Assembly (NCBI GenBank): GCA_041658955.1
Contig: JBAZZE010000004.1
Span: 1 to 57,031 of the forward strand
Origin: Candidatus Shapirobacteria bacterium
GTDB lineage: Bacteria; Patescibacteriota; Microgenomatia; UBA12405
Reading direction: 5' to 3'
DNA length: 57,031 nt
A program made the position numbers and the translations under genes. Numbering within the stretch: the stretch's first letter is position 1; every line of letters begins with the position of its first letter. Of the stretch, positions 13,464 through 44,969 are shown one piece after another. Under the pieces are notes generated by a model, which was not told the DNA's origin, ran no database searches, and was given only the letters and a program-made list of their open reading frames with translations.

Positions 13464-15262
13464 CAAGAGATTTTTATTGCTATAATATAGAGCTCTTTTA
13501 ACAAATTGCCGATCCACCACAGGCGGACAGGTGTGGTGAACATCGGGAAAAAATGCCGACGTGGTGAAATTGGTATACACGTACGCTTGAGGTGCGTATG
13601 CCGCAAGGTGTGGAGGTTCAAGTCCTCTCGTCGGCACCATACAGAACTTTTTAAATAGCTTTTCAAATTATCACGATTTGACGGGCTATTTTTAGGTTCA
13701 AGCGGTCCACTTTTATCATTACTCATTTTTGCACCCTCCTTTAACTTCAAAAAGATAAATCTAGGCTGATATTCAAGTTTCTGATCTAGTAAGATCGGGT
13801 TCAAGCCGATTGCCTTGAAAATGACTTTTTTGTCTTCTGAATCACCGTTTTCAAAGCGTTGATTGGCTAGTAATGCAAATTCGAATGAGTCTTTGGCTAC
13901 GTCTGCCCAATCAGAACCGTTGTTATTTGCCTGAGCCAGTTGTCGGGTAATGTTGTCCTTCTCGATCATGAGCTCCCGCTTTCTATCCGCAAACTCAGTA
14001 TCAGATAGTAAACTCCCGTCATTCTCTGGTGAAATCTTAAGCGCTATCAGATTATCAATTCGACGATTTACCCCGTCTAAAGCAGTCTGGAGTGCCTCTG
14101 AGCTATTCTTATTTACAGCTTGACTCTTCTCTTTGGTTTCATCGAGCGCCTCATAAGCCCAATCGACAAATTCTTTATCTTCGATATTAAACTGGAGTAG
14201 ATCGCTCGAGAACTGACCTTCAAGTTTTGAAGTAGCAATATATGGCTGTGAACACTTAGTTTGACCTTTCTTCGTACAACAATAATAACCAAATATTTGC
14301 TCGGTCCCATTCTTGTATCTTTTCTTATGCTCTTGCGCCGTGATGCAGTAGTGACACTCTCCGCATTTCATGATTCCATTAAGTGCAAAATCATGTACCT
14401 GTATTCTTGCCTTTGATCTGCCATCCAAAATATCCTGTAAGAGGTTAAATTCTGCCTCGCTCAACATAGCAGGATGCTGACCTTGATAGAGCTTCCCTCC
14501 ATACATGAATTTGCCGGTATAGAAGGGGTCTCGCAACAGCCTGTGCATCCAGCTTTTTACAATCGGTTTACCTGACTTTGAGCTCCTGATCCCTAATATA
14601 TTTGCTTCTCTCATCAAGGCTTGAACGCTGTAGTTACCAGTTAATGCAAGATCAAACAGCTTTCTCATGAGTGGAAAGTACACAGGGTGAGCTGAGATAT
14701 CTCTGAGACCCTGAGGTTTCTCATGATTATTCTTGTAGCCTGGTCTGGCTTTGCCAGGGAACACGCCCCGTTCAGCTTTAAGCTTTAAAGCCTCAGTCAC
14801 ATTAACACTTTTGTTATCATTCTCGAGTTTTGCCTGAGTGCAGAGGAGATTCAGCATAAACTTATCATTTGGATTATTACGGAATGTTTGATAAGGAGTA
14901 ACTACCTCAATGAGTTTCCCTTGATCCATCATATAAATGATTCTGCCAGTATCGACAGTATTTCTTGATAACCGTGATGGATTTAGTAAGACTATTCCGT
15001 TTACATCACCGTCTTCAATTTTCTGGATAAGTTGACCAAAGATTGGTCTGCCAGGCGTTTTGGCTGTTCGTTGCTCCAGAAGTGGCTCTCCAACTAATTC
15101 AACGCCTCTTTGGTGTACCAGAGCAGTTAGATTAGTGATCTGATCAGGTAGGGATTGGATTTGTCGCTCATCGGATTCACTACTTTTCCGGCAATACATC
15201 ATGTAGCGAGGAATTATGGGAGCTTGGCTTTTACCTTGAGTGTTATAGTCTGCGAGTTTCAT
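13454..15262 (-). CDS. Large serine recombinase (integrase); last 59 aa come from host sequence beyond the junction, mostly antisense to tRNA-Leu
   Basis: YCRKSS catalytic Ser, SRLSRN, GKARPGY, recombinase domain, Zn ribbon CGEC...YYCC...C, coiled coil; ends ...SSVWC|RREDLNLH (tRNA antisense). Confidence 0.93.
   Translation of the reverse strand: MKLADYNTQGKSQAPIIPRYMMYCRKSSESDERQIQSLPDQITNLTALVHQRGVELVGEPLLEQRTAKTPGRPIFGQLIQKIEDGDVNGIVLLNPSRLSRNTVDTGRIIYMMDQGKLIEVVTPYQTFRNNPNDKFMLNLLCTQAKLENDNKSVNVTEALKLKAERGVFPGKARPGYKNNHEKPQGLRDISAHPVYFPLMRKLFDLALTGNYSVQALMREANILGIRSSKSGKPIVKSWMHRLLRDPFYTGKFMYGGKLYQGQHPAMLSEAEFNLLQDILDGRSKARIQVHDFALNGIMKCGECHYCITAQEHKKRYKNGTEQIFGYYCCTKKGQTKCSQPYIATSKLEGQFSSDLLQFNIEDKEFVDWAYEALDETKEKSQAVNKNSSEALQTALDGVNRRIDNLIALKISPENDGSLLSDTEFADRKRELMIEKDNITRQLAQANNNGSDWADVAKDSFEFALLANQRFENGDSEDKKVIFKAIGLNPILLDQKLEYQPRFIFLKLKEGAKMSNDKSGPLEPKNSPSNRDNLKSYLKSSVWCRREDLNLHTLRHTHLKRTCIPISPRRHFFPMFTTPVRLWWIGNLLKELYIIAIKISCGR
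13555..13639 (+). tRNA. tRNA-Leu(GAG), integration target, followed by CCA
   Basis: GCCGACG/CGTCGGC stem, TACGC-TTGAGGT-GCGTA, discriminator A13636 then CCA 13637-13639. Confidence 0.96.
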
Positions 15263-15458
15263 ATTGCCTCCCTTCTGATTCCGATGATTTATTAACCTTC
15301 GAATCGATCATGTTTGTTTTTGGTTTTGGTCTAATTAAAATTTCCATAAGGTTTAAAAAATGGTTTGCCAATTCAGTTGCCTCCTCATCTGTGAGAGTAA
15401 TGTCATATTTGTCCTTATATAGCTTCTTAAACTTATCTAAATACTCTTTACTTATCAT
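15243..15458 (-). CDS. Small protein upstream of the integrase (candidate recombination directionality factor)
   Basis: MISKEYLDKFKKLYKDKYDITLTDEEATELANHFLNL; overlaps the integrase start by 20 bp; function inferred from position only. Confidence 0.65.
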   Translation of the reverse strand: MISKEYLDKFKKLYKDKYDITLTDEEATELANHFLNLMEILIRPKPKTNMIDSKVNKSSESEGRQYETRRL

Positions 15459-15481
15459 GGCTGTACTCTTAAATAAACTAC

Positions 15482-15558
15482 AACTATAGTTACAGAATAG
15501 CAATTATAGTTGTAGTTGTCAAGCATATTTTAAGGCTAAATTATAACTATAGTTACAG
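15482..15558. promoter_or_regulatory. Leftward sigma70 promoter with three palindromic operator-like sites
   Basis: Minus strand TTGACA(15522-15517)-17 nt-TATTCT(15499-15494); AACTATAGTT at 15482-15491 and 15545-15554, variant AATTATAGTT at 15502-15511. Confidence 0.75.
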
Positions 15559-15650
15559 TGGATATTTAGGCTCAAACTATGTCCTATAACTTGAAGAAAT
15601 GAGAGTTCTTTGATAAACTACCGTCAAATTGCGAGTGATATACTACGATT

Positions 15651-15875
15651 ATGAATATGTTGCCAGATGAAAAAAGCCAGAAAGCGTTCGGTAAAAACCT
15701 GCGCTCTGTTCGGGAGGATAAAAACCTTTCACAAGAAGAGGTTGCGGTACTGAGTAAAATTTCTACAACCCACTATGCTGGCATTGAACGAGGAGAAGAA
15801 AACCCTACTTTTTCAGTGATCGAAAGTATTTGCAAGGCGCTCAAGATTAAATCATCCCAAGTCCTTCCGTTTTAA
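15651..15875 (+). CDS. XRE-family HTH repressor
   Basis: FGKNLRSVREDKNLSQEEVA...HYAGIERGEENPT; divergent from the integrase module. Confidence 0.92.
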   Translation: MNMLPDEKSQKAFGKNLRSVREDKNLSQEEVAVLSKISTTHYAGIERGEENPTFSVIESICKALKIKSSQVLPF

Positions 15876-15940: not shown

Positions 15941-18532
15941 ATGCTTAATATAACTTCCATACAAAAAACTCTAGCTCCGTATTTAATTTCGTTGCTCACC
16001 TCATTTAATCCTTTTATTACTCCACTCAAGATAGTTTTACTGGCTTTGGTGCTCTTATATGTCTGTTTTCAAATATTTCGGGTATATCTTTTCATTAAAC
16101 AGTTAAAAGAGAAAAGTATCCTTTTTGAGATTAAACCTCTCAAAAATACAGAACAGTCTTCATATACAACTCAGCAATTATTTGCCATTCTGCATGGGCT
16201 GGCCAGACAACGATCATTTATCAACCGTTTATTTGATATCCAAAAAACCTATTCTTTTGAGATCGTTTCGACGAAGAATGGCGGAATAACCTATTACACG
16301 AGAATTGGAGAAGATGAAGCTGACTTAGTTAAGAAAACCCTCTTATCCTATCTACCCGGAATCAGTGTAAAAGAAACGACTGATTATCTGGAGTTACTTA
16401 CTAAGCAACATACACGAATATCTAGTTATAGACTTTCACGACACTTTGCATACCCACTTAAACACCAAGAGGATTTAGCCAGCCATGATCCAATAGCATA
16501 CCTAACAGGAAGTATGACTAAGTTAAGTGACGATGATCTAACTGCATTTCAGGTCGTATTATCGCCTCTGCGTAAATCTTCACTTCCTGACGTTTCGCGT
16601 ATTTCTCATCTTATTTACTCAGGTAAAGATATTGTTTCAAACTTGGGCAATGATGCAAGCTCAAATCCAGTTGTAGTCTTATTCAAAATGCTCTTCGGTT
16701 TAATACTTCGTATACTGATGCTTCCATTCGGATTATTAGTCTTTATCACAACAGATGGCAGAGAAGGTCCGATGCTACGGCTTCCTACCGATATCGAACC
16801 ACTCAAAACACCAAACCCGTATCAGATGGAACTGGAACAGCTGGTAAAGAATAAATTAGATCAACAGTTATTCTCGACATCTGTACGGCTCATGGTAGCA
16901 AGCAATAATTATAGTGAACTAAGAAAACGGGAACGAGGTTTTCAATCTGCACTTTCCGCGCTTAATAATTCGGAGTACCAGGCACTCATTCCGTCATTTC
17001 GGATCAGGGTAAAGATATTTGATCGAATAATGGAATCACTTTACAATTTAAGATTTTTGCTTCCAACTAGATCATTTATTCTCTCGGCCACTGAGGTATC
17101 AGATCTCTATCACTTTCCCTATACTAGTACGACTAAGACTGAGGATTTGCTCAAGCAACACAGTAAAGAATTGCCCGCTCCATTATCACTTAAGCAGAAA
17201 CAAGAAAGTGATTTGTACTTTGGGACAAATACCTATGGTGGCACTGAGACTAAAATAGGGTTAACCGCTGACGAAAGACGGCGCCATGTGTATATTCTCG
17301 GAGCTACCGGCACAGGAAAGTCCACGATGTTGCTATCGATGATTAAGCAAGATATTGATCATAACAAAGGGTTATCGGTGATTGACCCACACGGTGATCT
17401 GATTGAGCAGATATTGTCTGTAATACCTCGCGAGAGGATCAAGGATGTAGTCTACTTTAATCCAGATGACATTAGCTACCCTATGGGCATCAATCTTCTT
17501 GAACTAACTCCAGGGTTAAATCCTGAAGATGCTATCAGAGAAAAAGAATTTATAGCAGAAAGTATTATCTCGGTCTTCCATAAAATCTACACCGATAAAT
17601 ACTCAGGGCCAAGAATGGAATACATATTGAGAAATACTATTCATACTGCCTTTACCGTTCCAGATGCTACTTTGTTTACAGTGTATAAACTCCTCATAAA
17701 CACGAGCTACCGAAAATCTGTTACCAAAAACCTGACAGATGAGAATCTTAACGATTTCTGGAAGTTTGAATTTGCCAAAGCGGGTGATTATCAAAAAGTG
17801 AAAATGATTTCTCCAATAACCAATAAGATCGGTCGTTTCCTGTTTTCTCCAACAGCTAAGCGAATACTCGAGCAGGGTAAGTCAACCGTAAACTTCGATA
17901 CCATTATGAATGAAGGGAAAATACTCTTATGCAATCTCTCGAAAGGCAAGATCGGAGAGGATAACTCAAGTGTTTTTGGAGTTTTAATCATGGCAAAGAT
18001 TCAGTTGGCTGCCTTAAAGAGAGCCAGGATGAAGCAGGAAGAAAGAAAAGACTTCTTCTTGTATGTTGATGAGTTCCAAAACTTTGCTACACCAGCGTTT
18101 GCCCAAATCCTCTCAGAGGCGCGAAAATATAGACTTGGCGCTATCTTAGCTCACCAAACCACCTCACAACTTGAAGATGTTTCACTCGTAAATATTACCC
18201 TAGCTAATACGGGTACAGTGATTTGCTTTAGAACCGCTAACCCAGAGGATGAGCGGATGATCTTGCCACAATTCAGGCCATATATTGAACAGGGTGAAAT
18301 CGCGAGCCTTCCCTCATATCACTTTTACATGAGGCTTGGAGCACTTAACCCAGAAGAACCATTTTCAGGTGTTACTGTTCCAGTACAAATCGAATACAGT
18401 CAGAATAGGGTTAATGAGGTTGTTGAATCGTCGAGAAAATTGTATGCCAAGTTCTACACTCCAGATATACAAATACCAGTCAAAAAATCTACTAATCAAG
18501 CTACACAAAAGATCTATTCTACAGTGCCATAA
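15941..18532 (+). CDS. Type IV coupling protein (VirD4/TraD/HerA-like ATPase)
   Basis: N-terminal TM, RRRHVYILGATGTGKS, IDPHGD, LYVDEFQNF, SEARKY, LAHQ. Confidence 0.88.
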   Translation: MLNITSIQKTLAPYLISLLTSFNPFITPLKIVLLALVLLYVCFQIFRVYLFIKQLKEKSILFEIKPLKNTEQSSYTTQQLFAILHGLARQRSFINRLFDIQKTYSFEIVSTKNGGITYYTRIGEDEADLVKKTLLSYLPGISVKETTDYLELLTKQHTRISSYRLSRHFAYPLKHQEDLASHDPIAYLTGSMTKLSDDDLTAFQVVLSPLRKSSLPDVSRISHLIYSGKDIVSNLGNDASSNPVVVLFKMLFGLILRILMLPFGLLVFITTDGREGPMLRLPTDIEPLKTPNPYQMELEQLVKNKLDQQLFSTSVRLMVASNNYSELRKRERGFQSALSALNNSEYQALIPSFRIRVKIFDRIMESLYNLRFLLPTRSFILSATEVSDLYHFPYTSTTKTEDLLKQHSKELPAPLSLKQKQESDLYFGTNTYGGTETKIGLTADERRRHVYILGATGTGKSTMLLSMIKQDIDHNKGLSVIDPHGDLIEQILSVIPRERIKDVVYFNPDDISYPMGINLLELTPGLNPEDAIREKEFIAESIISVFHKIYTDKYSGPRMEYILRNTIHTAFTVPDATLFTVYKLLINTSYRKSVTKNLTDENLNDFWKFEFAKAGDYQKVKMISPITNKIGRFLFSPTAKRILEQGKSTVNFDTIMNEGKILLCNLSKGKIGEDNSSVFGVLIMAKIQLAALKRARMKQEERKDFFLYVDEFQNFATPAFAQILSEARKYRLGAILAHQTTSQLEDVSLVNITLANTGTVICFRTANPEDERMILPQFRPYIEQGEIASLPSYHFYMRLGALNPEEPFSGVTVPVQIEYSQNRVNEVVESSRKLYAKFYTPDIQIPVKKSTNQATQKIYSTVP

Positions 18533-18671: not shown

Positions 18672-19445
18672 ATGGACAATCAAAAACTATCCACTCTACA
18701 ACTCAACATTCTTCACTATCTCTATCGCTTTCGCTTCTTAACCAGTCTACAACTTCAAAAACTTCTTACTCACAAAACTATCCGCCTGACTAACTACCAC
18801 TTACAACTACTCACTTCAAAAAATTACATCGGCAAACACTATACACGATCACTAGGCTTAGCTAATCTCCCAGCAGTCTATTATCTAACGTCAGGAAGTA
18901 TCCAGATATTAGAACAACAAGACAATATCGATAAACGAGCCTTGAAACGAATCTACAGAGAAAAAATCAGATCTCAACAATTTATCGCTCATACCTCATT
19001 TTTAGCAGAATACTTCTTACATCTAAGCCAAGAATCAGAAAAAACCAAGCACACACTCCATTTCTTTACTAAAACAGATCTACTGGCACACCCCTACATG
19101 CCTCACCCATTACCCGATGCTTATTTTGCTCGGGTAGATATTGCAGGCAATACAAAAAGATACTTTGTCGAAGTAGTTGAAGATAGCTCGCCTCGGTTTG
19201 CCTTGCGCAAGCGAGTCCAAGAGTTCTGTGATTATATCGATGACGGAAAATTTGAGGAGGCGACTAACCATCCATTTCCGGCCATACTTTTTATCTGTCC
19301 TGGATACGGCAGTATGATCTACCTAAAGAAACATATAGCCCGTATTTATGAAGAAACACCGCTTGATCAAGTAGATATATACCTTGCAACTAGAGAGGGT
19401 GCATTTTCAGGACATTGGGAAAAGGTGGAAGCGGAAGACGACTAA
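18672..19445 (+). CDS. Replication-relaxation (Replic_Relax) family protein
   Basis: N-terminal wHTH (RFRFLTSLQLQKL), HTSFLAEYF, PDAYF, YFVEV; directly downstream of the T4CP. Confidence 0.78.
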   Translation: MDNQKLSTLQLNILHYLYRFRFLTSLQLQKLLTHKTIRLTNYHLQLLTSKNYIGKHYTRSLGLANLPAVYYLTSGSIQILEQQDNIDKRALKRIYREKIRSQQFIAHTSFLAEYFLHLSQESEKTKHTLHFFTKTDLLAHPYMPHPLPDAYFARVDIAGNTKRYFVEVVEDSSPRFALRKRVQEFCDYIDDGKFEEATNHPFPAILFICPGYGSMIYLKKHIARIYEETPLDQVDIYLATREGAFSGHWEKVEAEDD

Positions 19446-20229: not shown

Positions 20230-20544
20230 TTATAATTTTGCACTGGGCATAACTTCGCTGATTCTCTTCTCGTCAAAATACAAATCTCTCTCAATCCCTA
20301 ATCCAAAGTTGCCATGATAGCTTTCGAGTTCATCCAGAGAAAAAGAGCCCCATTCGTCATTCCAATCCCCAAAGATGGAAACAAATCCGAAAAACTCTCT
20401 CGATGCTGGATCGTACTCGGTTGCGTACCATGTACCCGCGCCTGTTGGGTTAAAGAATTTCGCAACCACAACAGGATCGCTACTGTCTTCTTGTCTGCCT
20501 ACCTTGGCGAACCTTTCTAATAGTCCTTTTGTAAGTAGTTTCAT
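20230..20544 (-). CDS. DUF2958 domain protein
   Basis: VVAKFFNPTGAGTWYATE, FFGFV, EWGSFSLDEL, IERDLYF; SD AAGGAGGTG. Confidence 0.85.
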   Translation of the reverse strand: MKLLTKGLLERFAKVGRQEDSSDPVVVAKFFNPTGAGTWYATEYDPASREFFGFVSIFGDWNDEWGSFSLDELESYHGNFGLGIERDLYFDEKRISEVMPSAKL

Positions 20545-20586: not shown

Positions 20587-20719
20587 TGGGAAGTATGGCC
20601 ATACTTCCCATACCAGGGGAACCCTCAAGCAGGGTGAAATTTTGCAAGGGCAAACGAAGTGCAGTTTATTGGAGGCGTAGCCGGAAACCCTTGCAAAAAG
20701 AGGGGTAAGACCCCTTCTT
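20587..20719. repeat. Cluster of inverted repeats
   Basis: Perfect 24-bp palindrome 20587-20610; 11-bp arms TTTTGCAAGGG (20640-20650) / CCCTTGCAAAA (20688-20698); AGGGGT-AAG-ACCCCT near 20701-20715. Confidence 0.85.
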
Positions 20720-20743
20720 ACTGTGTTGTGATATAACTAATTT

Positions 20744-21214
20744 GTGCCTAAAACGAAGCTTATAAAAGTTGATACAGAGTTTGTCCAAAAATGGGCTGGT
20801 GTTCTTGAATCAACTTTTGATGAACACGGAATGCTGACAAAGGTAATGGAAGTAAATCTTCAGGATAAAGGTGTTGAATACAGGCTCAGCATTGTCGCTG
20901 GACTCAAATTGAAATATATTATTGAGCTTGAACCCGATATAGCATTAGCAATGGCTTCACCTACGGGACATGTAAAGATAGAAGCGCCGATTCCCGGAAC
21001 CCAATTTGTAGGCATTACGGTTCCAAAACCCAAAGAAGCCGAACCCGTGAAGGAACAGAAACTTAAAGTGGTACATCTGACAAAAGAAGTAAAAGTCCCA
21101 GAATATTCATTTATTGAAGTAACTCGTGACCTGTTTACACTAGTGTTTAGATCAATCGGAAAATATAGCTATATTTTGGCTGAGAAAACTCAAAAAATCG
21201 GACAGAAGAAATAG
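20744..21214 (+). CDS. Stand-alone FtsK alpha-domain protein
   Basis: YRLSIVAGLKLKYIIELEPDIALAMA...VKIEAPIPGTQFVGITVP; no Walker motifs; GTG start. Confidence 0.72.
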   Translation: MPKTKLIKVDTEFVQKWAGVLESTFDEHGMLTKVMEVNLQDKGVEYRLSIVAGLKLKYIIELEPDIALAMASPTGHVKIEAPIPGTQFVGITVPKPKEAEPVKEQKLKVVHLTKEVKVPEYSFIEVTRDLFTLVFRSIGKYSYILAEKTQKIGQKK

Positions 21215-21219: not shown

Positions 21220-23310
21220 TTACTTGTCCAGAATAACCTTTATATCGGTCTTCTCCAAGTCTAAATGTTCAGCTAATTTAACGACAATATCTCGCTTGAG
21301 ATTGGTGTTCGTATTATTTTCATAAAAATATGAGGTTTCATTTATCGCATTAGGTGTCCTGAGTTCGCTTGAATCTGAGGTTATATATCGATGCAAAAAG
21401 TCGTCACTTGTTACATAGTCATAGAGTTTGTCATCTAACATGAATAGTTTAGTAAGTATTGTCCCAAGCACAGCAGCCCAACTATTACACTCTGTAACTT
21501 CACCAAGTATTGAAACTCCCTTTACTTTCGATCCCGTTAGGTCCTTATCATCATAGAACGAGAGCTCAGTTTCATTCACAACGGGAACAAAGTTAGTCTT
21601 TGGAAGTGGCCAAATCTTTTCAATTTGGTCATACCACCATGATTCGCGTTCCTCTAGCGCTAGAATATCCCATTTTTCTTTATTCTTTACGTATTGATTA
21701 ATCAGGAGAGGGCTTTCGTTGAATCCATTTTCTGTCGTCTTTTTGATCTCAAAATCGTTGTTTGAATACTTTGAGTTATATCCTGTTAACGTCAGGTTCG
21801 GCAGAGTATGTAAATATTGCTGATGGATTTGTTCGTAATTGTCACCTAAAGACTCAATCCACGCTTTATTCAGAGTTTGGGGCATGACATGTTCAATCGT
21901 GAGCTGAATCTCTTGCTTGGCGATTTGTTTGAGGAGAGTAGATTCTTTGGACTGATCGTCTACGGAACTAAGAACAAAATAAATATAGTAATTTCGCTGA
22001 CTGTACATCGGATTGTTTTTAATAGCGCTCCTGATCTCAGCTTCTTTGGGTATGCGTAGTCCACCAGTTTTATCAGTCAAAATGTATCCAAGTATTTCGG
22101 AATATTTTTGGTCGGGATATTCAGATAGGTATTTCTCTATATCTTTATGGATTGATGAAAATAAGTTGTTAACGCCAGTTGTTGGGATATTGCAAATAAT
22201 TCTTCTCGTTAGATATGTTTCTACACACTCAAAAACTTTATAGAGCTCCGTGTTATCTAATTTTCCGTGGGTGTATTCATCCAAGACTCTCATCAAAAAA
22301 GGGAATGGAGTTTCAAGTTTCAAGTAATTGAGCCTAAATCCCTTATCTGCTACAAATTTATAAACTCCGTCCTCGTCGAGATTAAATTTCAAAAAGATAT
22401 AGTGATATAAATAATCGACAACTTGCCCATAAAATTCTTCTAGCTTTGAGATATCACCCTGAACCTCGCCAATGTACGAATAAAAAAGCTTTTTAAACTC
22501 TGGATATACTTGTTCGATTTTAACTTCCTTCTGTAATTTACTAGTCAGATAAAACTTGAAAAAATCTGAAATGTAGTCTTTATTGATATACGTCAATCGA
22601 CTTTCAATTTTTTGCCAATATTTCTTAAGTACCAGATCTCTCGCTTGGTCGTTATTAAGCATTAGGGCAAAGTTACGAATTTTGTCTCCATCAGTTAGTG
22701 GCTTACCCGTGGAGTTTATGCTCTCAAAAATCTTTTGCGGGTTATCATCAGTAGCGTCTAGCGCGATGGTAACGACCTCAAAATTCTTCAGAATGTCTAT
22801 ATATTTTTGAAGATCCGTTTTCTCTTTAAAATATAGGTAAAATTGCTCATATGCTTGATATAGCTTACTGTCTTTACTGTGTGGGCCAAATTCTCGTTCA
22901 AATATCTGTTCAAATATTTCGTTATCAGTCGTAACAGTGCGCAATTTTATGCGATTTTTCTCTTCATTGTAATCATGACTGTTGTATAAATATTGATCTT
23001 TAATTGCTTGAGCTGGAATTGTAGAGGATGCTGGGTTATCCGAAATTATGTGATATAGAGCAGTCAACATCAATAAAACTGTGGTAGCCCTCTGTTGTCC
23101 GTCGATGATGGTGCTATTGTTTCCCTCATTAAGATAAACAATGCTGCCAAAATAATGATTTTTACTTTTGACTAAGACTGATTCAAGATCATCAATAAAA
23201 GAACTAATATTTGCTTTATCCCATGAATAAGGGCGTTGAAAGTCGGGAATTACGAAGTATTTCCCGGGTGTATAGAGAAACGTATTAATGTTGTCGTGAG
23301 TCACCTTCAT
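21220..23310 (-). CDS. gmrSD: GmrSD-type restriction endonuclease (DUF262 + DUF1524 HNH) with extra C-terminal domain
   Basis: IPDFQRPYSW, IIDGQQRATT, FESINSTGKPL, TIEHVMPQ, NLTL...NSKYSN. Confidence 0.88.
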   Translation of the reverse strand: MKVTHDNINTFLYTPGKYFVIPDFQRPYSWDKANISSFIDDLESVLVKSKNHYFGSIVYLNEGNNSTIIDGQQRATTVLLMLTALYHIISDNPASSTIPAQAIKDQYLYNSHDYNEEKNRIKLRTVTTDNEIFEQIFEREFGPHSKDSKLYQAYEQFYLYFKEKTDLQKYIDILKNFEVVTIALDATDDNPQKIFESINSTGKPLTDGDKIRNFALMLNNDQARDLVLKKYWQKIESRLTYINKDYISDFFKFYLTSKLQKEVKIEQVYPEFKKLFYSYIGEVQGDISKLEEFYGQVVDYLYHYIFLKFNLDEDGVYKFVADKGFRLNYLKLETPFPFLMRVLDEYTHGKLDNTELYKVFECVETYLTRRIICNIPTTGVNNLFSSIHKDIEKYLSEYPDQKYSEILGYILTDKTGGLRIPKEAEIRSAIKNNPMYSQRNYYIYFVLSSVDDQSKESTLLKQIAKQEIQLTIEHVMPQTLNKAWIESLGDNYEQIHQQYLHTLPNLTLTGYNSKYSNNDFEIKKTTENGFNESPLLINQYVKNKEKWDILALEERESWWYDQIEKIWPLPKTNFVPVVNETELSFYDDKDLTGSKVKGVSILGEVTECNSWAAVLGTILTKLFMLDDKLYDYVTSDDFLHRYITSDSSELRTPNAINETSYFYENNTNTNLKRDIVVKLAEHLDLEKTDIKVILDK

Positions 23311-23327
23311 AATGCAATTATACTCAT

Positions 23328-24614: not shown

Positions 24615-24619
24615 AATTA

Positions 24620-37087: not shown

Positions 37088-38867
37088 TATCACCAAAATC
37101 AAACCTATTCGTGATTGGCAAAAGCGCCAAAAGAAAAAACGCTTAGCGCACCAAGCTATCAACGTCACGTTTGGCGAACAAGACCAACTCGACCTTATTT
37201 CCTATGCCGGACTTAAAGAGGAATCGAGCTATTTACAGATAAACGATACTTTTGTCCGAACACTCTTTGTTTCGGGATACCCATATGTTGCCTCTACTGG
37301 CTGGCTTTCAATGCTGGTGAACTTTAACCACAATATTGACATTAATTATCACGTTGAACAGATTGATCCTCTCATAGCTCTGCCCAAGCTTAACCGCAAA
37401 ATCACAGAACTTGAGTCCACCAAGCGCACCATGCTCAAAGAAGGACGGGTTATCGGAAGTGAAATCACTGATCCGCTTGAATCTGCCATGGAACTCAAAG
37501 ATAAAATTCAGCGGGGCATGGAAAAACTGTTCCAAGTTTCCATATATATGACTGTCACCGCTGAGAGCTTGGTCGAACTGGATAAAGTGACGAAGCTGTT
37601 AGAAACGGTTATGCAGACAAGGCTTTTCTATATAAAACCCGCGACTTTCCAACAAGTCGAAGCCCTGCAATCAGTCTTACCTCGAGGTGAAAATAAGCTG
37701 GCTCAAAAGAGAAACTTGGATAGCTCAAGTGCTGCGCTTACATTCCCATTTGTGTCCTCCGAACTGGTACAGGAGTCCGGAATCCTCTATGGCATCAACA
37801 AATCGAATAATTCTCTGGTTATCATTGACCGCTACAGTCTAAACAATGCCAACTCCATTATTTTTGCCCAGTCTGGTTCAGGCAAGAGCTTTACTGCCAA
37901 AGTAGAGATCCTGCGTCACCTCATGCAAGGTACAAAAGTCATAGTCATTGATCCAGAACGCGAATATAAGCAACTGGCTAAAAGCGTCAACGGAACCTAT
38001 ATCAAACTATCAAGCACCTCGAAAGAAAAGATTAACCCATTTGATTACTCCCAAACCTCCGTCACGGGTGAGAATAGCCTCGCTGAGCACATACAAGACC
38101 TCACAGAGCTCATATCGCTCATGGTTGGCAGTCTGACTTCGGAAGAGCGGGCAACCGTTGATCGCGCGCTCCTGCAAACATATAAAAATGCGGGCATGAG
38201 TAAACGCAAGAATGGTAGGAAACCAGCGAAAATTGTCTATCCAGTCCTCAAGGATTTCTATAAGGAACTAAAATCAATGAAGCACAAAGACCTCTGTAAC
38301 AGACTTGAGCGGTTTGTAAAAGGCTCACTTGGTGGTGTTTTTGATTCTCAGACAAATATCGAGATGAATAATCGCCTTGTAGTGTTTGATATCAAGGATC
38401 TCAATGAATCACTTCGTCAGATCATGATGATGGTGGTTGCCAATTTCGTCCATAGTGAGGTCAAACAGAACCCACAAAAAAGAATGCTGGTCATTGATGA
38501 GGGTTGGATTCTACTACAGGAGCCAGAAAGCGCCCGATTTATCTCAGGACTTGTCAGGCGCGCCAGAAAATACTATCTGGGGGTCACAATCATTACTCAA
38601 CAAGCAAATGACTTCCTGTCACAGGAGTACGGGAAGGCTATTGCTAGCCAATCTTCGCTTCGTATTCTCATGCGCCAAGATACTACCACCATCAAAAAAG
38701 TGGCGGAAGAATTCCATCTTTCGGCCTTTGAACAGCATTACCTATTAACGTGTGAACGCGGTGAGGCTCTCATCATTGCTGATCAAAACCATGTAGCTGT
38801 AAAAGTGGTTGCCTCCGAAGAAGAGCACCCACTCCTCACAACCGATCCTCGGGAGATCTACATCTGA
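37080..38867 (+). CDS. virB4: VirB4-like conjugation ATPase
   Basis: FAQSGSGKSF, IDPEREY, FDIKDL, LVIDEGW, RRARKY, ITQQ. Confidence 0.9.
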   Translation: MFNITKIKPIRDWQKRQKKKRLAHQAINVTFGEQDQLDLISYAGLKEESSYLQINDTFVRTLFVSGYPYVASTGWLSMLVNFNHNIDINYHVEQIDPLIALPKLNRKITELESTKRTMLKEGRVIGSEITDPLESAMELKDKIQRGMEKLFQVSIYMTVTAESLVELDKVTKLLETVMQTRLFYIKPATFQQVEALQSVLPRGENKLAQKRNLDSSSAALTFPFVSSELVQESGILYGINKSNNSLVIIDRYSLNNANSIIFAQSGSGKSFTAKVEILRHLMQGTKVIVIDPEREYKQLAKSVNGTYIKLSSTSKEKINPFDYSQTSVTGENSLAEHIQDLTELISLMVGSLTSEERATVDRALLQTYKNAGMSKRKNGRKPAKIVYPVLKDFYKELKSMKHKDLCNRLERFVKGSLGGVFDSQTNIEMNNRLVVFDIKDLNESLRQIMMMVVANFVHSEVKQNPQKRMLVIDEGWILLQEPESARFISGLVRRARKYYLGVTIITQQANDFLSQEYGKAIASQSSLRILMRQDTTTIKKVAEEFHLSAFEQHYLLTCERGEALIIADQNHVAVKVVASEEEHPLLTTDPREIYI

Positions 38868-38868
38868 C

Positions 38869-39477
38869 ATGAATCCAAAACTGTTCCTAACCCTCTGGTC
38901 GTTTCGCAAGGAACTAAAATTCGTATTCCTAGCATTCCTCACTATCCTCATGGTGCCGGTTATCGGGGTCATCTTACTCACCAGAGTAGGTATCAACATC
39001 ATTTCCGATAAATTAGTTGAAAGTAACCCAGTCACACAGTCAATTGAGATCAAAGATCCAACGTCCGGAGAAGTTGTTAAATCCATATCTCCACAGGTCG
39101 CTTGGCCTGTTCACGGGGTAATAACACTAGAATTTGGCCAATCCAGTCTCTATCAAGTCTTTCACACTGGTATTGATATTGCGAACCCCTCAGGGCAAAT
39201 CGGTGATCTTATCAACCCCGCAATGGATGGCGAAGTCATGTATGCTGGAGAAATATTCTGGGGGTATGGAAAGCACGTTATCATTGACCACGGTAACAAT
39301 ATAACGAGCATCTATGGCCACTTAGATAAGATTTTCGTCTACAAAGGCCAGAAAGTAACTATTACAGACACCATTGGGAAAGAGGGACAAACTGGATGGG
39401 CTACCGGACCACACTTACACTTTGAAACGAGGATATATGGGATTCCGGTTAATCCAAGAGTATTTTTAGGCGAATGA
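38869..39477 (+). CDS. M23-family peptidase (cell-wall hydrolase)
   Basis: N-terminal TM, FHTGIDIA, YGHL, TGPHLHFE; start MNPKLF. Confidence 0.9.
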   Translation: MNPKLFLTLWSFRKELKFVFLAFLTILMVPVIGVILLTRVGINIISDKLVESNPVTQSIEIKDPTSGEVVKSISPQVAWPVHGVITLEFGQSSLYQVFHTGIDIANPSGQIGDLINPAMDGEVMYAGEIFWGYGKHVIIDHGNNITSIYGHLDKIFVYKGQKVTITDTIGKEGQTGWATGPHLHFETRIYGIPVNPRVFLGE

Positions 39478-39502: not shown

Positions 39503-42500
39503 ATGTTTCTAGGGTTATTTATGAGTAAAACTGGTGGAAAAGCAACATATAAGGGAATTAATGCACAGTCATGGGCAGCATTATCATTATTTCTTCAATA
39601 CGTCAGAAGCTCCAATCTTGATCACATAGCTTTTGAACAGGATGAGCTCAAAGACTTTGACTTGGTTTTCTCCTCAGGAAAAAAAATTATTTGTGAATCC
39701 AAAACAGAAAGAGTTACCCATGGTGTCATCAAAGGTATATTAGATAACCTGATTGATAATAAAAAGGTAGGAACTGATGATGAAATACTTATTATTTGCC
39801 AGGATTTAAGTCCAGATGCACAGGGTGATGTTGAAAACGTAAAGTATTTTGAGGAAATAAAGGAGAAATTAAAGAAAAAAGGATTTACTGACCAGCATTT
39901 AGAATTACTACCCAAAATCAAGTTTTGGAAAGTTGATCAAGATACTAATGAATTTATTGTAACGACACTACTTGCTGAAATTCTGGGTGCATGGTTTCCT
40001 GATACAACCTTTGATGAAATAGTAAGCAATATTCTTATTGATAGAGTTTATAAAGGATCTCAACTAGGTAAAACATTTACGAAGGATGAGTTTTACAAGC
40101 AGATTGATGAGAGAAAAAAACAGGTTCAAGATGATGCAGGCTATAAAGATGAACAAAAGGAAAAAATAGAAAGAATAAATAAATTGCTCACAGCAATTGA
40201 TAGTCCAACCAGCCAAGACTGGTGCAATAACGAAATAACTCTTCTTACTACCACTCCTGATCTCTATTACCTCACAATAAAAAAGCTAGACGGTCTTCCA
40301 AATCTTAATCTACCTCAATGGGATAACTTATGGAAAGCAGCAGCCAGAGGAACATTCTCGATAAATGTTTTCGAAATTTTCCAAAAGAATGTAAATGATC
40401 CAGAAAACCAGGAATATTTAATCAACTTTTTACCAACAGTTATTGAAAGGATATTAAGTTTTTATAGGCAAGAATTTATTGTTGTGGACATTGTGAAGAT
40501 CTGTTCAGCAATTCTTGACCAGACACACAAGTACGACAAACAAATATTTGAAATACTAAAAAGCTTAATCGAGGTCAATACCAAAGAGGTCTTCTTTATC
40601 AAAAAATCACATCGTAAGGAATGGGAGCAAGAACAAACAACGGAGGCGTTAGAAAAACTTTATCAGAAAGCAGAAGAGAGTGTTAAAAAAGAAATTGTCG
40701 CCTTTATTTTTATGTTTTTTGATTTGGTGAGTGATGATGGTGAGTACTGGCACTATACCCCAGACTCCATTTTTGGAATCCTCAAAATACATACGGAAGC
40801 TGATGTTGAGTCTAGAATTATATCTTTATCGGAAGAACTGTCAAAACAATATGAGAAATTTTATAACAGACATGGCAGAAGATCCACATATCAGGGCTGG
40901 GAACACATGGGTTTTACAAATACTGATAGGCATTTTATTACTCATATATTGCAGCCAATATTAACTCAGTATTATGCAGCTAATCCTGATGCAGCGTGGA
41001 AATTTATTACCGAAAAATTAATTACAGTAAAACAAGATTTAGTATCAGCAGAGAAACCAGATTATTTAAATAGAGCTTCTGTTCCAGTAATAATTAGTGC
41101 TTATTTAGATCCTAAATATAAAAAGGAAGCACTCGCAATAATCAAAGACTTTGTAGAAATGCGAAAAGGAATTCCTCATAAGACAGAGCTGATTTACAAG
41201 CAAGTAGGCGGAGACGCGTTTTCTGATGATCAAAAATGGGAACTTGTAAAATTACAACTCGATTATGAACCATACAAAGGCATCCCTGCTAATGATCATG
41301 TAGAAAAAATAGTTAGTGAGTTAGCAAATAAAGGACATGAGGATGCATTAGCTGCTTTGGAGGCATGGGGAAAAAACCCTGAGTATAATAAGTTTCGAGG
41401 AGTTCTAGAAGGAAATATTACTTCAAATGTTCCAGGTCTACTTGCGAACCCAAAGACGAAGAGCAGGGGCATAGCCATTTTAAGAGAGTTTCTCAAAAGT
41501 GACTATTTCATAAATAAACAGGGAGAGTGGGACGTATGGCAAACAGCTAGAGTTTTATCACAGGTTTTGGTTGAAGACTTTGAAGAAGGAAAGGCAATTA
41601 TCCAGGAAATATGGGTTCAAGATTCACTCACTCATAATCAGCAGATTGTAATTACTAGTAGTATTAATGACATTGAAAATAATGATAGTTTAATTGCAAG
41701 AATTTATGATGAGATAGTTTCATCTTGGCTCACTGATTGTAAAGATGATGTAAAACTTTTTATAGCAAAAATACCTGATGTCCAATCAAGATTGTCCGTT
41801 GTTCGATATGGAGACAAACTAGCAAAGGCAAAAAAGTATGAAGGTGCAATAAAAATTGCCAGATTCTTTATTGATGATCCAGATCCGACTTTAGAAAACG
41901 ATCCTAATGACCCAGAAGGAAAACACAATCTCCATGAGCAGGTTAAAAAGGGCAAGGACGTAAATGAGATTACTACAATTAGAGCCTCAGTCGCATGGAT
42001 ATTACAAAGTATAGCCATATTGCCAGGGCGTGATTATATTCCTGAGATTATTCCGCTAGTAGAAAAACTAACTAAAGACGAAAATTATTACGTAAGGGCG
42101 TACGCTTGTATCCCATTAGAACAGCTAATGACCGTAAGGCATACTGTTTTACCCACTGATTCCACGGAAAGATTCCTCAGTATTGAGGTTGCAAATGAAA
42201 TTGAGCGGATCGCTTATGCAATGTTGCGAAATAAAGAGAACTGGGGACTAGAACAAATAATGATGGGAATTTTGAGACTTTTTTATAACGTTAGAAGCGT
42301 TACCACTGAGGAGGCAAAGGAAATATTGAATACTTTCTTGGAAACTAAGAATGACAAAATTATTGAAGAAGCCAGAAGCTTATTTATTTTCTTTGCAGAG
42401 TTTAGAGCAGGTGCAATCGATGAGGAGAAACTGAAATACGTTTATAGCAAAGAAAGAATAGCAGAGTTAACGGATTTTGATGATACTTACTTCAAGGAAT

Positions 42501-43060
42501 TGCTTATTAAAATCTTAACCGATTCATCAAGTGAAGTTAAGGCAGGGCTTGCTTGGGCATTTTGGCACTTACCAAAAGAACAGGGAGTTAATTTTGAAAA
42601 CTGTTTTGCAATTGCCTATAAATATCTTCTAATCCTCGCTGATTCTTATGAGCATGAAGTTATGACAAATATCTATTATTTCATTGAAGAAAATTTTGAG
42701 CATAAGTTTGAAGAATGTTTTGAACTTTGGAAAAAATGCTTAACTGTAGAAAGACCATATTTGCAAGGAAAAATCACAAAAGATAATCTTTACGAAATGC
42801 ACTGGTGGCCATTTCATTACAATGGCAAGATCCTTGTCAAAATTGCAGACGAGAAAGGTGATGAAGAGTTTTTAGAATGGGTCGATTATCTAGCTGACTA
42901 TCCAGAAGGTGTCATTATTGCAAATGATTTAGATCTTGTTATTGATAGACTTGCCAATCTTCCTATCACTGATAAAGCAAAGTCTGTTTTTGAGAAACTA
43001 GTTACTCGAAATCCACAGTATTTTGTAAAAATGAAAAGTTGGTTAGCAGTTATCTCGTAA
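39503..43060 (+). CDS. 1185-aa protein: N-terminal PD-(D/E)xK (Cap4/DUF4297-like) nuclease plus long HEAT-like helical region; candidate antiphage protein
   Basis: GGKATYKGINAQ...FEQDELKDFDL...IICESK; HEAT-like LTKDENYYVRAYA and LTDSSSEVKAGLAW; no canonical Walker A seen. Confidence 0.7.
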   Translation: MFLGLFMSKTGGKATYKGINAQSWAALSLFLQYVRSSNLDHIAFEQDELKDFDLVFSSGKKIICESKTERVTHGVIKGILDNLIDNKKVGTDDEILIICQDLSPDAQGDVENVKYFEEIKEKLKKKGFTDQHLELLPKIKFWKVDQDTNEFIVTTLLAEILGAWFPDTTFDEIVSNILIDRVYKGSQLGKTFTKDEFYKQIDERKKQVQDDAGYKDEQKEKIERINKLLTAIDSPTSQDWCNNEITLLTTTPDLYYLTIKKLDGLPNLNLPQWDNLWKAAARGTFSINVFEIFQKNVNDPENQEYLINFLPTVIERILSFYRQEFIVVDIVKICSAILDQTHKYDKQIFEILKSLIEVNTKEVFFIKKSHRKEWEQEQTTEALEKLYQKAEESVKKEIVAFIFMFFDLVSDDGEYWHYTPDSIFGILKIHTEADVESRIISLSEELSKQYEKFYNRHGRRSTYQGWEHMGFTNTDRHFITHILQPILTQYYAANPDAAWKFITEKLITVKQDLVSAEKPDYLNRASVPVIISAYLDPKYKKEALAIIKDFVEMRKGIPHKTELIYKQVGGDAFSDDQKWELVKLQLDYEPYKGIPANDHVEKIVSELANKGHEDALAALEAWGKNPEYNKFRGVLEGNITSNVPGLLANPKTKSRGIAILREFLKSDYFINKQGEWDVWQTARVLSQVLVEDFEEGKAIIQEIWVQDSLTHNQQIVITSSINDIENNDSLIARIYDEIVSSWLTDCKDDVKLFIAKIPDVQSRLSVVRYGDKLAKAKKYEGAIKIARFFIDDPDPTLENDPNDPEGKHNLHEQVKKGKDVNEITTIRASVAWILQSIAILPGRDYIPEIIPLVEKLTKDENYYVRAYACIPLEQLMTVRHTVLPTDSTERFLSIEVANEIERIAYAMLRNKENWGLEQIMMGILRLFYNVRSVTTEEAKEILNTFLETKNDKIIEEARSLFIFFAEFRAGAIDEEKLKYVYSKERIAELTDFDDTYFKELLIKILTDSSSEVKAGLAWAFWHLPKEQGVNFENCFAIAYKYLLILADSYEHEVMTNIYYFIEENFEHKFEECFELWKKCLTVERPYLQGKITKDNLYEMHWWPFHYNGKILVKIADEKGDEEFLEWVDYLADYPEGVIIANDLDLVIDRLANLPITDKAKSVFEKLVTRNPQYFVKMKSWLAVIS

Positions 43061-43101
43061 TAATATTATTATTAACTTACAAAAATATATACAATGAGAA
43101 T

Positions 43102-43821
43102 ATGGCATCATTTTACGGTCATCCCAGCCGATATCTCAATACAAATAGAACTATTAGTAAATACGGTGCATTGGCTTATCTAATTCACTTCACCATCATT
43201 ATTGGAATAGTCATCTGGAGATTGTCGATAGCCTCATTTTCATTGCCCGCAGTATTCGCTATTACACTCGTATTTGGGCCATTACTGCTCGTTACAGACT
43301 CCCTGATGAGAAAAGAAGAGTCTTTGATGTATAAATTCCGCAGTGGAATCGTCGGTGAAAAGTTCATTGGTGATGAATTAAAAAAGCTGGATGCTAGCTA
43401 TACAGTTTTTCAAGATATCCACGTACCGGGAAAGAAAGAAAATATAGATTTTGTTGTTGTCGGACCAACGGGTATTCACGCTATAGAAGTCAAAAATCAT
43501 CATGGAACGGTAGGATTTAATGGTGACGAGCTTACCCTAAATCAAAAATCATTTGAAAAGGACTTTTTACGCCAAACCATGAGGGAAGCTACTTCACTTC
43601 ATGATTATTTGATTTCGTCTCGTATCACCAACGCATTCGTCATTCCGATTATAGTTTTCTCTCATCGCTTTGCTATTGTTCGATTCGGGATTCAACCAAT
43701 TAAAAATGTTCGTGTTATACAATATCGCTGGCTAATAAAGATGATTACCAGTGAGCCAAGAAGCTATCCAGATCAGCGAACAGTCGATTTATTAAAGGCT
43801 ACATATACTAGCGCCATATGA
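43102..43821 (+). CDS. 2-TM NERD-domain nuclease
   Basis: Two TM helices, GIVGEKFI, NIDFVVVGPTGIHAIEVKN. Confidence 0.82.
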   Translation: MASFYGHPSRYLNTNRTISKYGALAYLIHFTIIIGIVIWRLSIASFSLPAVFAITLVFGPLLLVTDSLMRKEESLMYKFRSGIVGEKFIGDELKKLDASYTVFQDIHVPGKKENIDFVVVGPTGIHAIEVKNHHGTVGFNGDELTLNQKSFEKDFLRQTMREATSLHDYLISSRITNAFVIPIIVFSHRFAIVRFGIQPIKNVRVIQYRWLIKMITSEPRSYPDQRTVDLLKATYTSAI

Positions 43822-44114
43822 CATACCAAGTATTTGTTGATGATAACTTTCACTTCATGGACGAGAGTGAGAGGTACTTGCATGGTGAATTTGACACCTG
43901 TGAGGAAGCGATTGTTGCCTGCAAGAAGATTGTTGATGACTGCCTGAAAAGCTCGTATCAACCAAAAATGAGTGCAGACCAGTTATATGAATCGTATATT
44001 GGGTTTGGTGATGATCCATTCATCAAATGTGATGATAAATCATGTGACTTTCATGCGAGGGATTATGCAAAATCACGGTGCCAAGCAATTATCGACGAGA
44101 AAATAACTAGTTAA
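43818..44114 (+). CDS. Small acidic hypothetical protein (98 aa)
   Basis: ATGA-coupled to the NERD gene; YQVFVDDNFHFMDESERY. Confidence 0.65.
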   Translation: MTYQVFVDDNFHFMDESERYLHGEFDTCEEAIVACKKIVDDCLKSSYQPKMSADQLYESYIGFGDDPFIKCDDKSCDFHARDYAKSRCQAIIDEKITS

Positions 44115-44341
44115 TTGGATAATTTGTCTTCAGATTTCAAGTCACGAGCTTTAATACCCATAAAGGTATCTGAAGTTTTAAGAAGCTCGGCGAACTCTGC
44201 AACATTTTCTTTGTGGTCAGGGTCAAGAACATCGAGAATTTTTTGTACATCACCCACGTTGTTTACATCCAAATTGTGATCGTGTGCATATTGGAGCGCA
44301 TCGATGACTAGTTCTGACTTTTTGGTTACTGTATCGTTCAT
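44111..44341 (-). CDS. Small hypothetical protein (76 aa)
   Basis: ATGA overlap with the PLD stop; SD AAGGAGG. Confidence 0.65.
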   Translation of the reverse strand: MNDTVTKKSELVIDALQYAHDHNLDVNNVGDVQKILDVLDPDHKENVAEFAELLKTSDTFMGIKARDLKSEDKLSN

Positions 44342-44859
44342 ATTTCCTCCTTAGTATAACAAATATTTTGTATTTCTCTGACATGATCATATTTTAGAAA
44401 GGAAAACAGGTCTTTAGCCTTCTTCTCATCATCCTCGCGCTCCATAAGTTCACGGCTATTCTTGTGTGACAAAATGTTAAGACTGCCTTTCCAGACGATC
44501 CTACGGTCAATCATGGCTAATTTCCTATGGTGAGTCTTGCTCATAAATACTTGTACGCCTATTTTTTCAAAAAACTGGATTCCTGCCTCAGCTTGTTCGG
44601 ACATGAACGAATCGTGCTCTTCGGGATGCCGAGTTATGATAAACACAGCTATTTTGCGCTCCATAAGTGACTCAAAGACGTGCTTCAGATTTCGCAGCTT
44701 TGGAACGGTGATAAATGGACTTTCAATAATTACTTCATGTTTTGCCTGAGCCAAATCACGCTCGAATTGATAGTAAAAGGAGTTTTCATCTGCTAAAATA
44801 ACGTTTGCAGTCTGGCGAGAGTCAGATTGAGAGCCCATATAGGACGAATTGTAACTCAT
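44338..44859 (-). CDS. Single-HKD phospholipase D-family nuclease
   Basis: IESPFIT, HRKLAMID (HxKxxxxD), WKGSLN; no signal peptide. Confidence 0.85.
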   Translation of the reverse strand: MSYNSSYMGSQSDSRQTANVILADENSFYYQFERDLAQAKHEVIIESPFITVPKLRNLKHVFESLMERKIAVFIITRHPEEHDSFMSEQAEAGIQFFEKIGVQVFMSKTHHRKLAMIDRRIVWKGSLNILSHKNSRELMEREDDEKKAKDLFSFLKYDHVREIQNICYTKEEI

Positions 44860-44969
44860 AGCTTTTTCTCCTTCTTAAAGTGAGCAATAGCGATGATAAG
44901 ACTAGCTTTCTCTTTTGGATTAATCGAGGAGGTTAGATAGGTTCCAACATCGTCCCAGATGGTGCACAT
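44856..44969 (-). other. Orphan 3' end of the integrase gene (attR side): (M)CTIWDDVGTYLTSSINPKEKASLIIAIAHFKKEKKL*
   Basis: Open frame 44969-44856; its TGA overlaps the PLD ATG; in frame with integrase codon C543 across the GCAC core. Confidence 0.75.

Follow-up and report, generated by a model that had tools for sequence, protein, structure and literature searches.

A probable integrative conjugative element in a Candidatus Shapirobacteria genome, with a serine integrase gene that spans its joined ends

Introduction

In a 57,031-nucleotide stretch of Candidatus Shapirobacteria DNA (contig JBAZZE010000004.1 of assembly GCA_041658955.1; hereafter the window), a large serine recombinase (LSR) gene runs out of its conserved part and into the antisense strand of a tRNA-Leu(GAG) gene. 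This raises the question of where the island carrying the gene begins and ends, and which protein the gene encodes when those ends are joined. We find that positions 13638–44967 (31,330 bp, with the core counted once) very probably constitute an integrative conjugative element (ICE), put in at the 3′ end of tRNA-Leu(GAG) by the LSR, whose gene spans the joint of the element's ends. LSR-driven conjugative elements are known from Firmicutes, among them Tn5397 with TndX and Tn4451 with TnpX. Streptococcal ICEs with serine integrases are known as well (PMC4701971).

Results

The island is bounded by a four-base core and is missing from relatives

The sequence GCAC occurs at 13634–13637, inside the 3′ end of tRNA-Leu(GAG) (13555–13639, plus strand, called by ARAGORN), and again at 44964–44967 on the same strand. 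The left copy, the core of the left junction attL, corresponds to tRNA positions 71–74; the right copy, the core of the right junction attR, ends just before a tRNA-Gln(TTG) gene (44984–45055, plus strand, from a tRNA call) that starts 17 nt past it. Joining the inner ends in silico gives ...CCCAG-ATGGTGCACCAT-ACAG..., a perfect 12-bp palindrome, while joining the outer ends gives ...GTCGGCAC-ATTAAGTCTTAGACAC-tRNA-Gln; the predicted junctions are CGTCCCAGATGGTGCACCATACAGAAC for the circle (attP) and CTCGTCGGCACATTAAGTCTTAGAC for the empty site (attB). We detected no direct repeat of 16 bp or more flanking the island, and identity between the two junctions is limited to 4 bp, a repeat that by itself is statistically worthless. 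The boundary call nevertheless goes beyond chance, because it draws on the breakpoints of empty sites, on a contig in which the ends are joined, on the occurrence of the same palindrome, 10–12 bp long, in distant relatives, and on a family-wide break of the integrases at the same Trp-Cys (WC) pair.

To locate empty sites, reference genomes were searched for a tRNA-Leu 3′ end with a tRNA-Gln 5′ end at most 30 nt downstream. The scan returned four contigs, all from Candidatus Shapirobacteria, a member of the candidate phyla radiation (CPR; Patescibacteria). In each of them tRNA-Leu(GAG) ends ...GTCGGCAC, followed by 5–15 unrelated nucleotides and then by tRNA-Gln(TTG), the host gene directly after tRNA-Leu(GAG) in these element-free genomes; the spacers between the two tRNAs measure 6–16 nt. 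Proteins encoded at 540–6195 and 47910–53348 of the window match both sides of the empty-site contigs at 50–72% amino-acid identity, and at the DNA level one of the contigs (L004) matches the window at 13554–13637 and resumes at 44979. Since the flanks are syntenic with empty-site Shapirobacteria and identity breaks at the cores, the host is a relative of Shapirobacteria and the 31,330 bp between the cores are an insertion. None of the four empty sites encodes CCA, GGCAC being followed by other bases; the window's tRNA-Leu(GAG) matches these relatives up to 13637, and the final CA of its CCA (13638–13639) is supplied by the element. The tRNA is still intact after insertion, with its last two bases coming from the element.

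A first-pass annotation of this DNA had proposed these boundaries, and they prove correct to the base, both by the L004 breakpoints and by the 4-bp overlap in the joined-end contig described below. The GCAC positions, the 12-bp palindrome, the tRNA placement and the 602- and 578-residue integrase frames that it gave were all correct on re-reading. Neither the CPR nature of the host nor the large size of the family had been recognised in it. The Leu(GAG)-Gln(TTG) adjacency, named beforehand as the prediction on which the proposal could fail, was seen in the four element-free contigs, with synteny on both sides.

Two features of the surroundings were also recorded. The sign of the GC skew changes between ~13 and ~45 kb of the window. 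Nine tRNA genes lie in the 13.6 kb to the left of the element (39–13639) and a tenth, tRNA-Gln, to its right; host-encoded CCA is absent in the two tRNAs inspected, tRNA-Val (13391–13464) and tRNA-Leu(GAG), as judged from the empty-site relatives.

The integrase reading frame continues across the joined ends

The integrated form of the LSR is a 602-residue open reading frame (ORF) on the minus strand (13454–15262), with Pfam matches that all lie above their cut-offs (PF00239 Resolvase, 65.2 bits; PF07508 Recombinase, 43.4; PF13408 Zn_ribbon_recom, 29.8). Only 13634–15262, encoding 543 residues, is conserved; past Cys543 the frame runs into antisense tRNA-Leu, and 13454–13633 is read-through of that tRNA and the DNA upstream of it. 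The WC codons, TGGTGC, are the reverse complement of GCACCA, the tRNA 3′ end. With the ends joined, the frame goes on instead as TIWDDVGTYLTSSINPKEKASLIIAIAHFKKEKKL*, giving 578 residues in total. The segment encoding this tail (44856–44963, minus strand) comprises 35 codons (T544–L578) and a stop, is in the integrase frame only in the joined form, and its stop codon (44856–44858) shares the sequence ATGA with the start codon of the following gene. An AlphaFold model of a related integrase that carries such a tail (P0085) has a well-modelled core, confident to about residue 524, and long paired helices at 365–409 and 424–447 after the zinc-ribbon strands, which form the coiled-coil motif of LSRs.

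A search for homologues of the integrase found 859, of which 134 sequences were examined. Similarity among them stops at ...KSS[VL]WC. What follows WC is antisense tRNA in 84 sequences (for instance REDLNLH, the T-arm of tRNA-Leu), a stop within one residue in 35, the native tail in one and some other tail in eight; the six others are fragments without WC. Integrases that are at least 90% identical to one another split directly after WC into different tRNAs, one of them in a Woesebacteria genome. All named sources belong to the CPR (Woesebacteria, Roizmanbacteria, Woykebacteria, Microgenomates, Levybacteria and Saccharimonadales), and distant members with WY in place of WC are inserted in tRNA-Glu and tRNA-Arg.

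The joint itself is present in a 928-bp metagenome contig from JGI (L054), which holds the 3′ end of an integrase gene, TATGGTGCACCAT, the tail and the start of a PLD gene in one piece. It reads ...AAAAGTTCTGTATGGTGCACCATCTGGAACGATGTTGGAACC..., continues through the tail and passes by ATGA into the PLD-like gene; it is open in the integrase frame from its first base and encodes P0147. Aligned to the window, its positions 1–655 correspond to 14288–13634 (78% identity) and 652–763 to 44967–44856 (88%), overlapping by 4 bp, and against the predicted joint all 763 bp align with zero gaps. L054 reads as the attP of the first-pass annotation, in a related element.

Finding further ORFs with both body and tail required a consensus query that combined the C-terminal region of the integrase with the tail. 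Four are now known, P0085 from the first search and P0147, P0148 and P0150 from the consensus query, and 26 distinct elements, collected in a metagenome scan and later look-ups, encode the tail beside attR. A tail of the WDD type in homologues, the second outcome by which the earlier proposal was to be judged, is in this way borne out.

Two candidates for a free or circular form were set aside. The contig L006, which carries P0085 and an intact attP, has chromosomal genes as neighbours, and an origin as a tandem array or remnant is likelier. P0132, a member of the integrase cluster with 578 residues, ends in antisense tRNA, and the agreement in length is coincidental. An exact look-up of the PLD protein returned a single Logan contig (SRR18595301), with the same attR as the window, and a scan of viral contigs for the P′-arm pattern yielded nothing related, its three matches being high-GC sequences that agree by chance.

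Several related contigs show rearranged sites. Complete attP sites with no adjacent integrase gene lie in L016 (~6630–6670), which retains only ~21 bp of the P arm (LKSSIWC), and in L013 (1608–1769), where a 53-residue ORF joins the last 17 integrase residues to the tail; these could be elements that borrow an enzyme, or deletion remnants. Within 8 kb, L040 holds fragments of integrase, VirB4 and M23 genes, a tRNA-Leu(GAG) and two P′ arms (190–212, 2078–2164 and 7959–7981), a mosaic suggestive of tandem or nested elements that have decayed at a single tRNA. In L046 (1757–1812), the integrase (P0121) shares at least 90% identity with that of the window and is followed by a variant P′ arm, with no tRNA in the contig; 14 bp beside the core differ, and TTCGAACCTATTT is kept at the same distance.

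attP carries a displaced copy of the tRNA T-arm motif

On the attB side, the half-site motifs lie in the T-arm of the tRNA (13615–13625, plus strand), where GGTTCAAG starts 19 nt and GTCC 12 nt to the left of GCAC. The corresponding arm of attP, P′ (44938–44963, plus strand), has GGTTCCAA starting 24 nt and GTCC again 12 nt to the left of GCAC. The motif is GGTTCGAA in most relatives, and the P′ arm is invariant even at third codon positions across the 26 elements. The other arm, P (13638–13662, plus strand), encodes on its minus strand the integrase residues ...KSYLKSSVW and is conserved in relatives, including the integrase-less L016 and L013. Between the two sites GGTTC shifts from 19 nt (13615) to 24 nt (44940), while GTCC stays in place. 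In the Listeria integrase, the distal zinc-ribbon motif is 5 bp nearer the centre in attB than in attP, with the proximal motif in the same register (PMC3783163). attP holds a copy of the T-arm motif GGTTCNA, displaced 5 bp outward and also encoding V-[RG]-T of the tail, and the 5-bp shift with a fixed GTCC corresponds to the known way in which serine integrases tell attP from attB.

The aligned junctions place the crossover within GCAC. The first-pass annotation had gone further and proposed that strands are exchanged at the central palindromic GC (13634–13635 and 44964–44965), which would require that orientation be set by a feature outside the overlap; we give this slightly less than an even chance. 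attP is symmetric about G|C, with both arms reading C-ACCAT...G(G/A)AC outward, and GAACC falls at half-site positions 21–25 in P′ and 16–20 in B, near the 16–24 and 11–19 of Listeria (PMC3783163). The attR of a single sequence (L051) follows attP only up to GC and then reads TCAAATT. A palindromic overlap, however, should give both orientations, and among the 134 homologues 84 tails are antisense tRNA and only eight are of another kind, a bias that is also awkward for the element as a whole. In characterised serine integrases, a palindromic dinucleotide abolishes orientation control. The asymmetric central dinucleotide alone sets polarity in phiC31 and Bxb1, according to work cited in PMC3783163, and one further junction (L050, where the tail is fused to a DUF2958 gene) is consistent with AC as the exchanged pair instead. 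Besides the GC at the dyad centre, GCAC also contains CA and AC; the junctions of L050 and L051 disagree, and those of the WY subfamily (L048 and L049) are contradictory too.

In the L050 fusion (683–910, P0139), the N-terminal part of a DUF2958 protein (...GAGTW) runs in frame into the tail CTIWDD..., which may mark a secondary site of insertion within a different element. At the equivalent point (20437–20445) the DUF2958 gene of the window has ACATGGTAC, a sequence similar to the att core. In the WY subfamily (L048, 4624–4700; L049, 4606–4681) the junction is TATGGTAC|C, and the target tRNAs, Glu and Arg, have a G1-T72 wobble atop the acceptor stem, which is either native to these tRNAs or the result of position 72 being rewritten by the element. 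About 1 kb from the WY-type member in tRNA-Glu, L048 carries a second recombinase ORF (5518–7170; Resolvase and Recombinase domains, no WC) that at its 3′ end reads through tRNA-Lys (5586–5658). Serine recombinases may quite generally target tRNAs in CPR genomes.

Transfer genes and near-identical copies point to conjugation

Between the cores lie a coupling protein, a VirB4 ATPase, pore genes and a relaxase-like gene, in keeping with the ICE identity claimed at first pass. The type IV coupling protein (15941–18532, plus strand) is VirD4/TraD-like with T4CP domains, and is followed by a 257-residue Replic_Relax (PF13814) protein, a candidate relaxase (18672–19445, plus strand; 45.4 bits against a cut-off of 25.3). 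A second cluster on the plus strand comprises a VirB2/TrbC pilin (34365–34700), a 425-residue protein with a pilin domain (34729–36006), a PrgI-like protein (36003–36473), a 205-residue ORF (36470–37087), the VirB4 ATPase (37080–38867; 377.7 bits against the 325-bit cut-off of NCBIfam conju_CD1110) and an M23 peptidase (38809–39477). By its gene content the island reads as an ICE of monoderm type.

A second copy gives a view of its movement. In the contig L005, the leftmost 10.7 kb of this element recur at 96–99% nucleotide identity. The adjoining tRNA-Leu(GAG) differs in its acceptor stem and the neighbouring host genes are not those of the window; the sole protein shared between the flanks is 38% identical.

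Several observations weigh against the island being a mobile conjugative element that excises as proposed. L054 may derive from a free circle or from a tandem array. P0085 lies in a chromosome-like contig (L006), and P0148 and P0150 (from L052 and L053) are products of N-terminally truncated integrase genes that keep the native tail; none of the three looks like a free circle, and we suspect that intact attP sites in chromosome-like settings are remnants of tandem arrays. Evidence for excision and transfer is indirect, namely the joined ends of L054 and the near-identical copies in different hosts. The relaxase assignment is a candidate one from a single Pfam match, the protein having no NCBIfam match, and no origin of transfer was found in the element. 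Type IV systems of Patescibacteria are mostly non-conjugative according to a 2025 survey (PMC12102498). Finally, the AlphaFold tail of P0085 has a pLDDT below 50 and is undocked, a result that is silent on function.

The survey bears most directly on an alternative in which the island is integrative and not conjugative, its type IV system serving an epibiotic lifestyle while the element moves otherwise or no longer moves. The same work reports few relaxases near the virB4 genes of Patescibacteria and argues for co-option (PMC12102498), an essential type IV secretion system has been described in Saccharibacteria (PMC12857230), and the dependence of the relaxase call on one domain match fits here too. 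Against it, the att bounds enclose the secretion system, the coupling protein and the relaxase-like gene, all of which the empty-site relatives lack, an element 96–99% identical resides in a host whose flank proteins are only ~38% identical, and integrases at least 90% identical are inserted at tRNAs of many kinds, also in a Woesebacteria genome. We regard this alternative as improbable, and retain the conjugative element as the preferred reading.

The exchanged tail is conserved as protein

The tail has the consensus C-TIWDDV[RG]TYLTSxIDPKEKxALxVAISHFKKExKQ in the 26 elements, and most tails have 32–37 residues and terminate close to a shared KKE..* point. Its coding sequence shows two patterns. 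Codons 7–10 (GTT CGA ACC TAT) do not vary at any of their three positions, the pattern of a DNA binding site, while codons 11–31 behave as for protein, with proportions of synonymous (pS) and nonsynonymous (pN) differences of 0.71 and 0.24, a ratio of 0.34. This pattern indicates that the tail is under purifying selection as coding sequence. Past about residue 524 the P0085 model shows a disordered stretch and then a helix (562–578), at low confidence. A short protein query centred on the tail returned only eight small proteins.

If the tail is protein, the junctions restrict how it can be made. In 16 of 25 attR-type junctions, no start codon (ATG, GTG or TTG) lies in frame between the nearest upstream stop and the tail, and among the other nine a Shine-Dalgarno-like motif occurs in one only, the DUF2958 fusion. 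Because most integrated junctions have no start codon, the tail would be translated consistently only as the integrase C-terminus from joined ends, and selection on it across hosts cannot depend on start codons supplied by the host.

These counts tell strongly against the tail being a separate small peptide expressed from the integrated element, for example from the ORF MCTIWDD... that begins at a host-flank ATG in the window. An ATG does directly precede the Cys codon in the window and in P0144, and gene callers list ORFs of 37–41 residues at some attR sites, but with most junctions devoid of a start we consider such a peptide very improbable. Slighter still are the prospects of the tail not being protein at all, with the 108 bp serving as the P′ arm and a leader of the PLD gene and the frame open by chance read-through: open frames of 35 codons are not unusual as chance events at this GC content, conservation of the first ~30 nt is at the DNA level and extends to third codon positions, and the tail end overlaps the ribosome-binding site of the PLD gene, yet codons 11–31 vary mostly at third positions, most tails agree in length and in a near-common end point, and the frame and ATGA overlap are retained in L050, L051 and L054.

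Other genes of the element

Around the integrase lie several candidate regulators. A small ORF overlapping the integrase start (15243–15503, minus strand) has no family match and has a counterpart of 58–79 residues at the same position in relatives; it is a candidate directionality factor or regulator. An Xre-type helix-turn-helix (HTH) regulator (15651–15875, plus strand), a conserved neighbour in relatives, diverges from the integrase operon. The region between the divergent genes (15474–15558) contains two 22-nt direct repeats with AACTATAGTT palindromes, reading TAAAYTAYAACTATAGTTACAG, which are probably operator sites.

Domain matches further identify a DUF2958 protein (20230–20544, minus strand) and an FtsK_alpha-domain protein (20744–21214, plus strand), between which, at window ~20716–20721, L005 has an extra segment of ~1 kb (its 3525–4541) with an Na_Ca_ex gene, a cargo indel. 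The block at 21220–34168 is cargo and consists, by domain and defence matches, mostly of defence genes: a GmrSD-type restriction enzyme (21220–23310), a trypsin-like protease (23328–24614), an HD_4 protein (24620–25435), a DUF2779 protein (25472–26881), type III Res (26871–29522) and Mod (29512–31110), and a DrmD-like SNF2 helicase (31115–34168).

To the right of the M23 peptidase gene, the transfer region includes a protein of 1185 residues without family assignment (39503–43060), which has sub-threshold HEAT-repeat matches only, no PADLOC or NCBIfam match, and no homologue in L035, a contig that shares the neighbouring genes. It is followed by a NERD nuclease-like protein (43039–43821), a 98-residue ORF (43818–44114), a 76-residue ORF on the minus strand (orf76, 44111–44341) and the PLD-like (PLDc_2) protein that adjoins attR (44338–44859, minus strand), whose ATG is the one overlapped by the joined-form integrase stop. 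The module of tail, PLD gene and orf76 is kept at the same end of related elements and recurs, close to VirB4 and M23 genes, in many contigs from groundwater metagenomes.

Discussion

The arrangement described here places attP inside the integrase frame, and we propose a cycle on this basis. The P arm encodes ...KSSVWC and the P′ arm TIWDDVGTY..., so that integration strips the last 35 codons from the integrase and substitutes antisense-tRNA read-through, and rejoining of the ends restores the 578-residue protein. In a donor cell, the 543-residue body with its host-derived tail would excise the element, possibly aided by the small upstream ORF; transfer would then proceed by the relaxase-like protein, the coupling protein and the VirB4 system. 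As a recipient would contain only joined ends, the full 578-residue form would carry out integration there, and integration and excision would be catalysed by two different isoforms. Joined ends would also place the PLD gene and orf76 under the transcription and translation of the integrase.

What the tail does within such a cycle can be suggested only tentatively. It is possible, although well short of probable, that as a disordered linker with an amphipathic helix it biases the enzyme towards integration or controls the enzyme level, and we are a shade more reserved about its being a state or direction switch. The fullest version, in which the reaction rewrites its own enzyme, the 578-residue form integrating, the tail-less form being excision-competent or differently regulated, and the PLD gene and orf76 coming on only after excision, is compatible with the evidence, but we consider it doubtful. 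If it were true, the position of attP would itself determine directionality, at least in part, a task that other serine integrases delegate to a separate factor.

In several respects the element resembles the LSR elements of Firmicutes: a single LSR gene at one end, no long flanking repeats, a very short exchange core and conjugation genes of monoderm (FA/FATA) type. It differs from them in its target, a tRNA 3′ end, in its CPR host, and in having attP within the recombinase coding sequence. In Tn4451 the joined ends form a promoter, altering recombinase expression; here the protein sequence itself depends on state, and not transcription alone.

An attP inside the integrase ORF is also found in the SSV-type ('suicidal') tyrosine integrases of archaeal viruses and plasmids, whose gene is split on integration (PMC7253208, PMC8371274). 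The tRNA target and the split gene are shared with the element described here, although the recombinase fold is serine and not tyrosine, and the likeness is confined to the position of attP. The SSV-type split yields two inactive pieces, whereas here residues 1 to ~524, with the catalytic and DNA-binding domains, stay whole and only the 35-residue tail is exchanged. Closer in mechanism is the integrase of Listeria phage A118 (the LI integrase; PMC3783163), which shares the recombinase domain, the zinc ribbon with coiled coil and the 5-bp motif shift. The element differs from that system in that the recognised motif is the universal tRNA T-arm, the attP centre is a perfect palindrome of 10–12 bp, and the directionality factor is only a candidate.

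The transfer genes are like those of other Patescibacteria type IV systems in their monoderm-type VirB4, VirB2-like pilins, VirB3/PrgI-like and VirD4-like proteins (PMC12102498; PMC12857230). Those accounts treat the systems as chromosomal and largely relaxase-free, whereas the system described here is enclosed in a mobile element of defined limits that also carries a relaxase-like gene. The text of PMC12102498 contains none of the words integrase, recombinase and tRNA. A literature search returned no description of a serine integrase with a C-terminus exchanged by integration, nor of delimited Patescibacteria ICEs.

Serine integrases are major tools of genome engineering, and a tail exchanged by the reaction itself is a simple candidate for self-encoded control of state. 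The family is a source of many natural integrases directed at tRNA 3′ ends, and their recognition code is readable, namely the T-arm motif copy shifted by 5 bp. For annotation, tools that rely on long att repeats miss such elements, and gene callers give their integrases spurious antisense-tRNA C-termini. Near-identical copies in dissimilar hosts point to real conjugative traffic in the CPR, a group that is hard to culture, and elements of this kind are possible vectors for CPR genetics.

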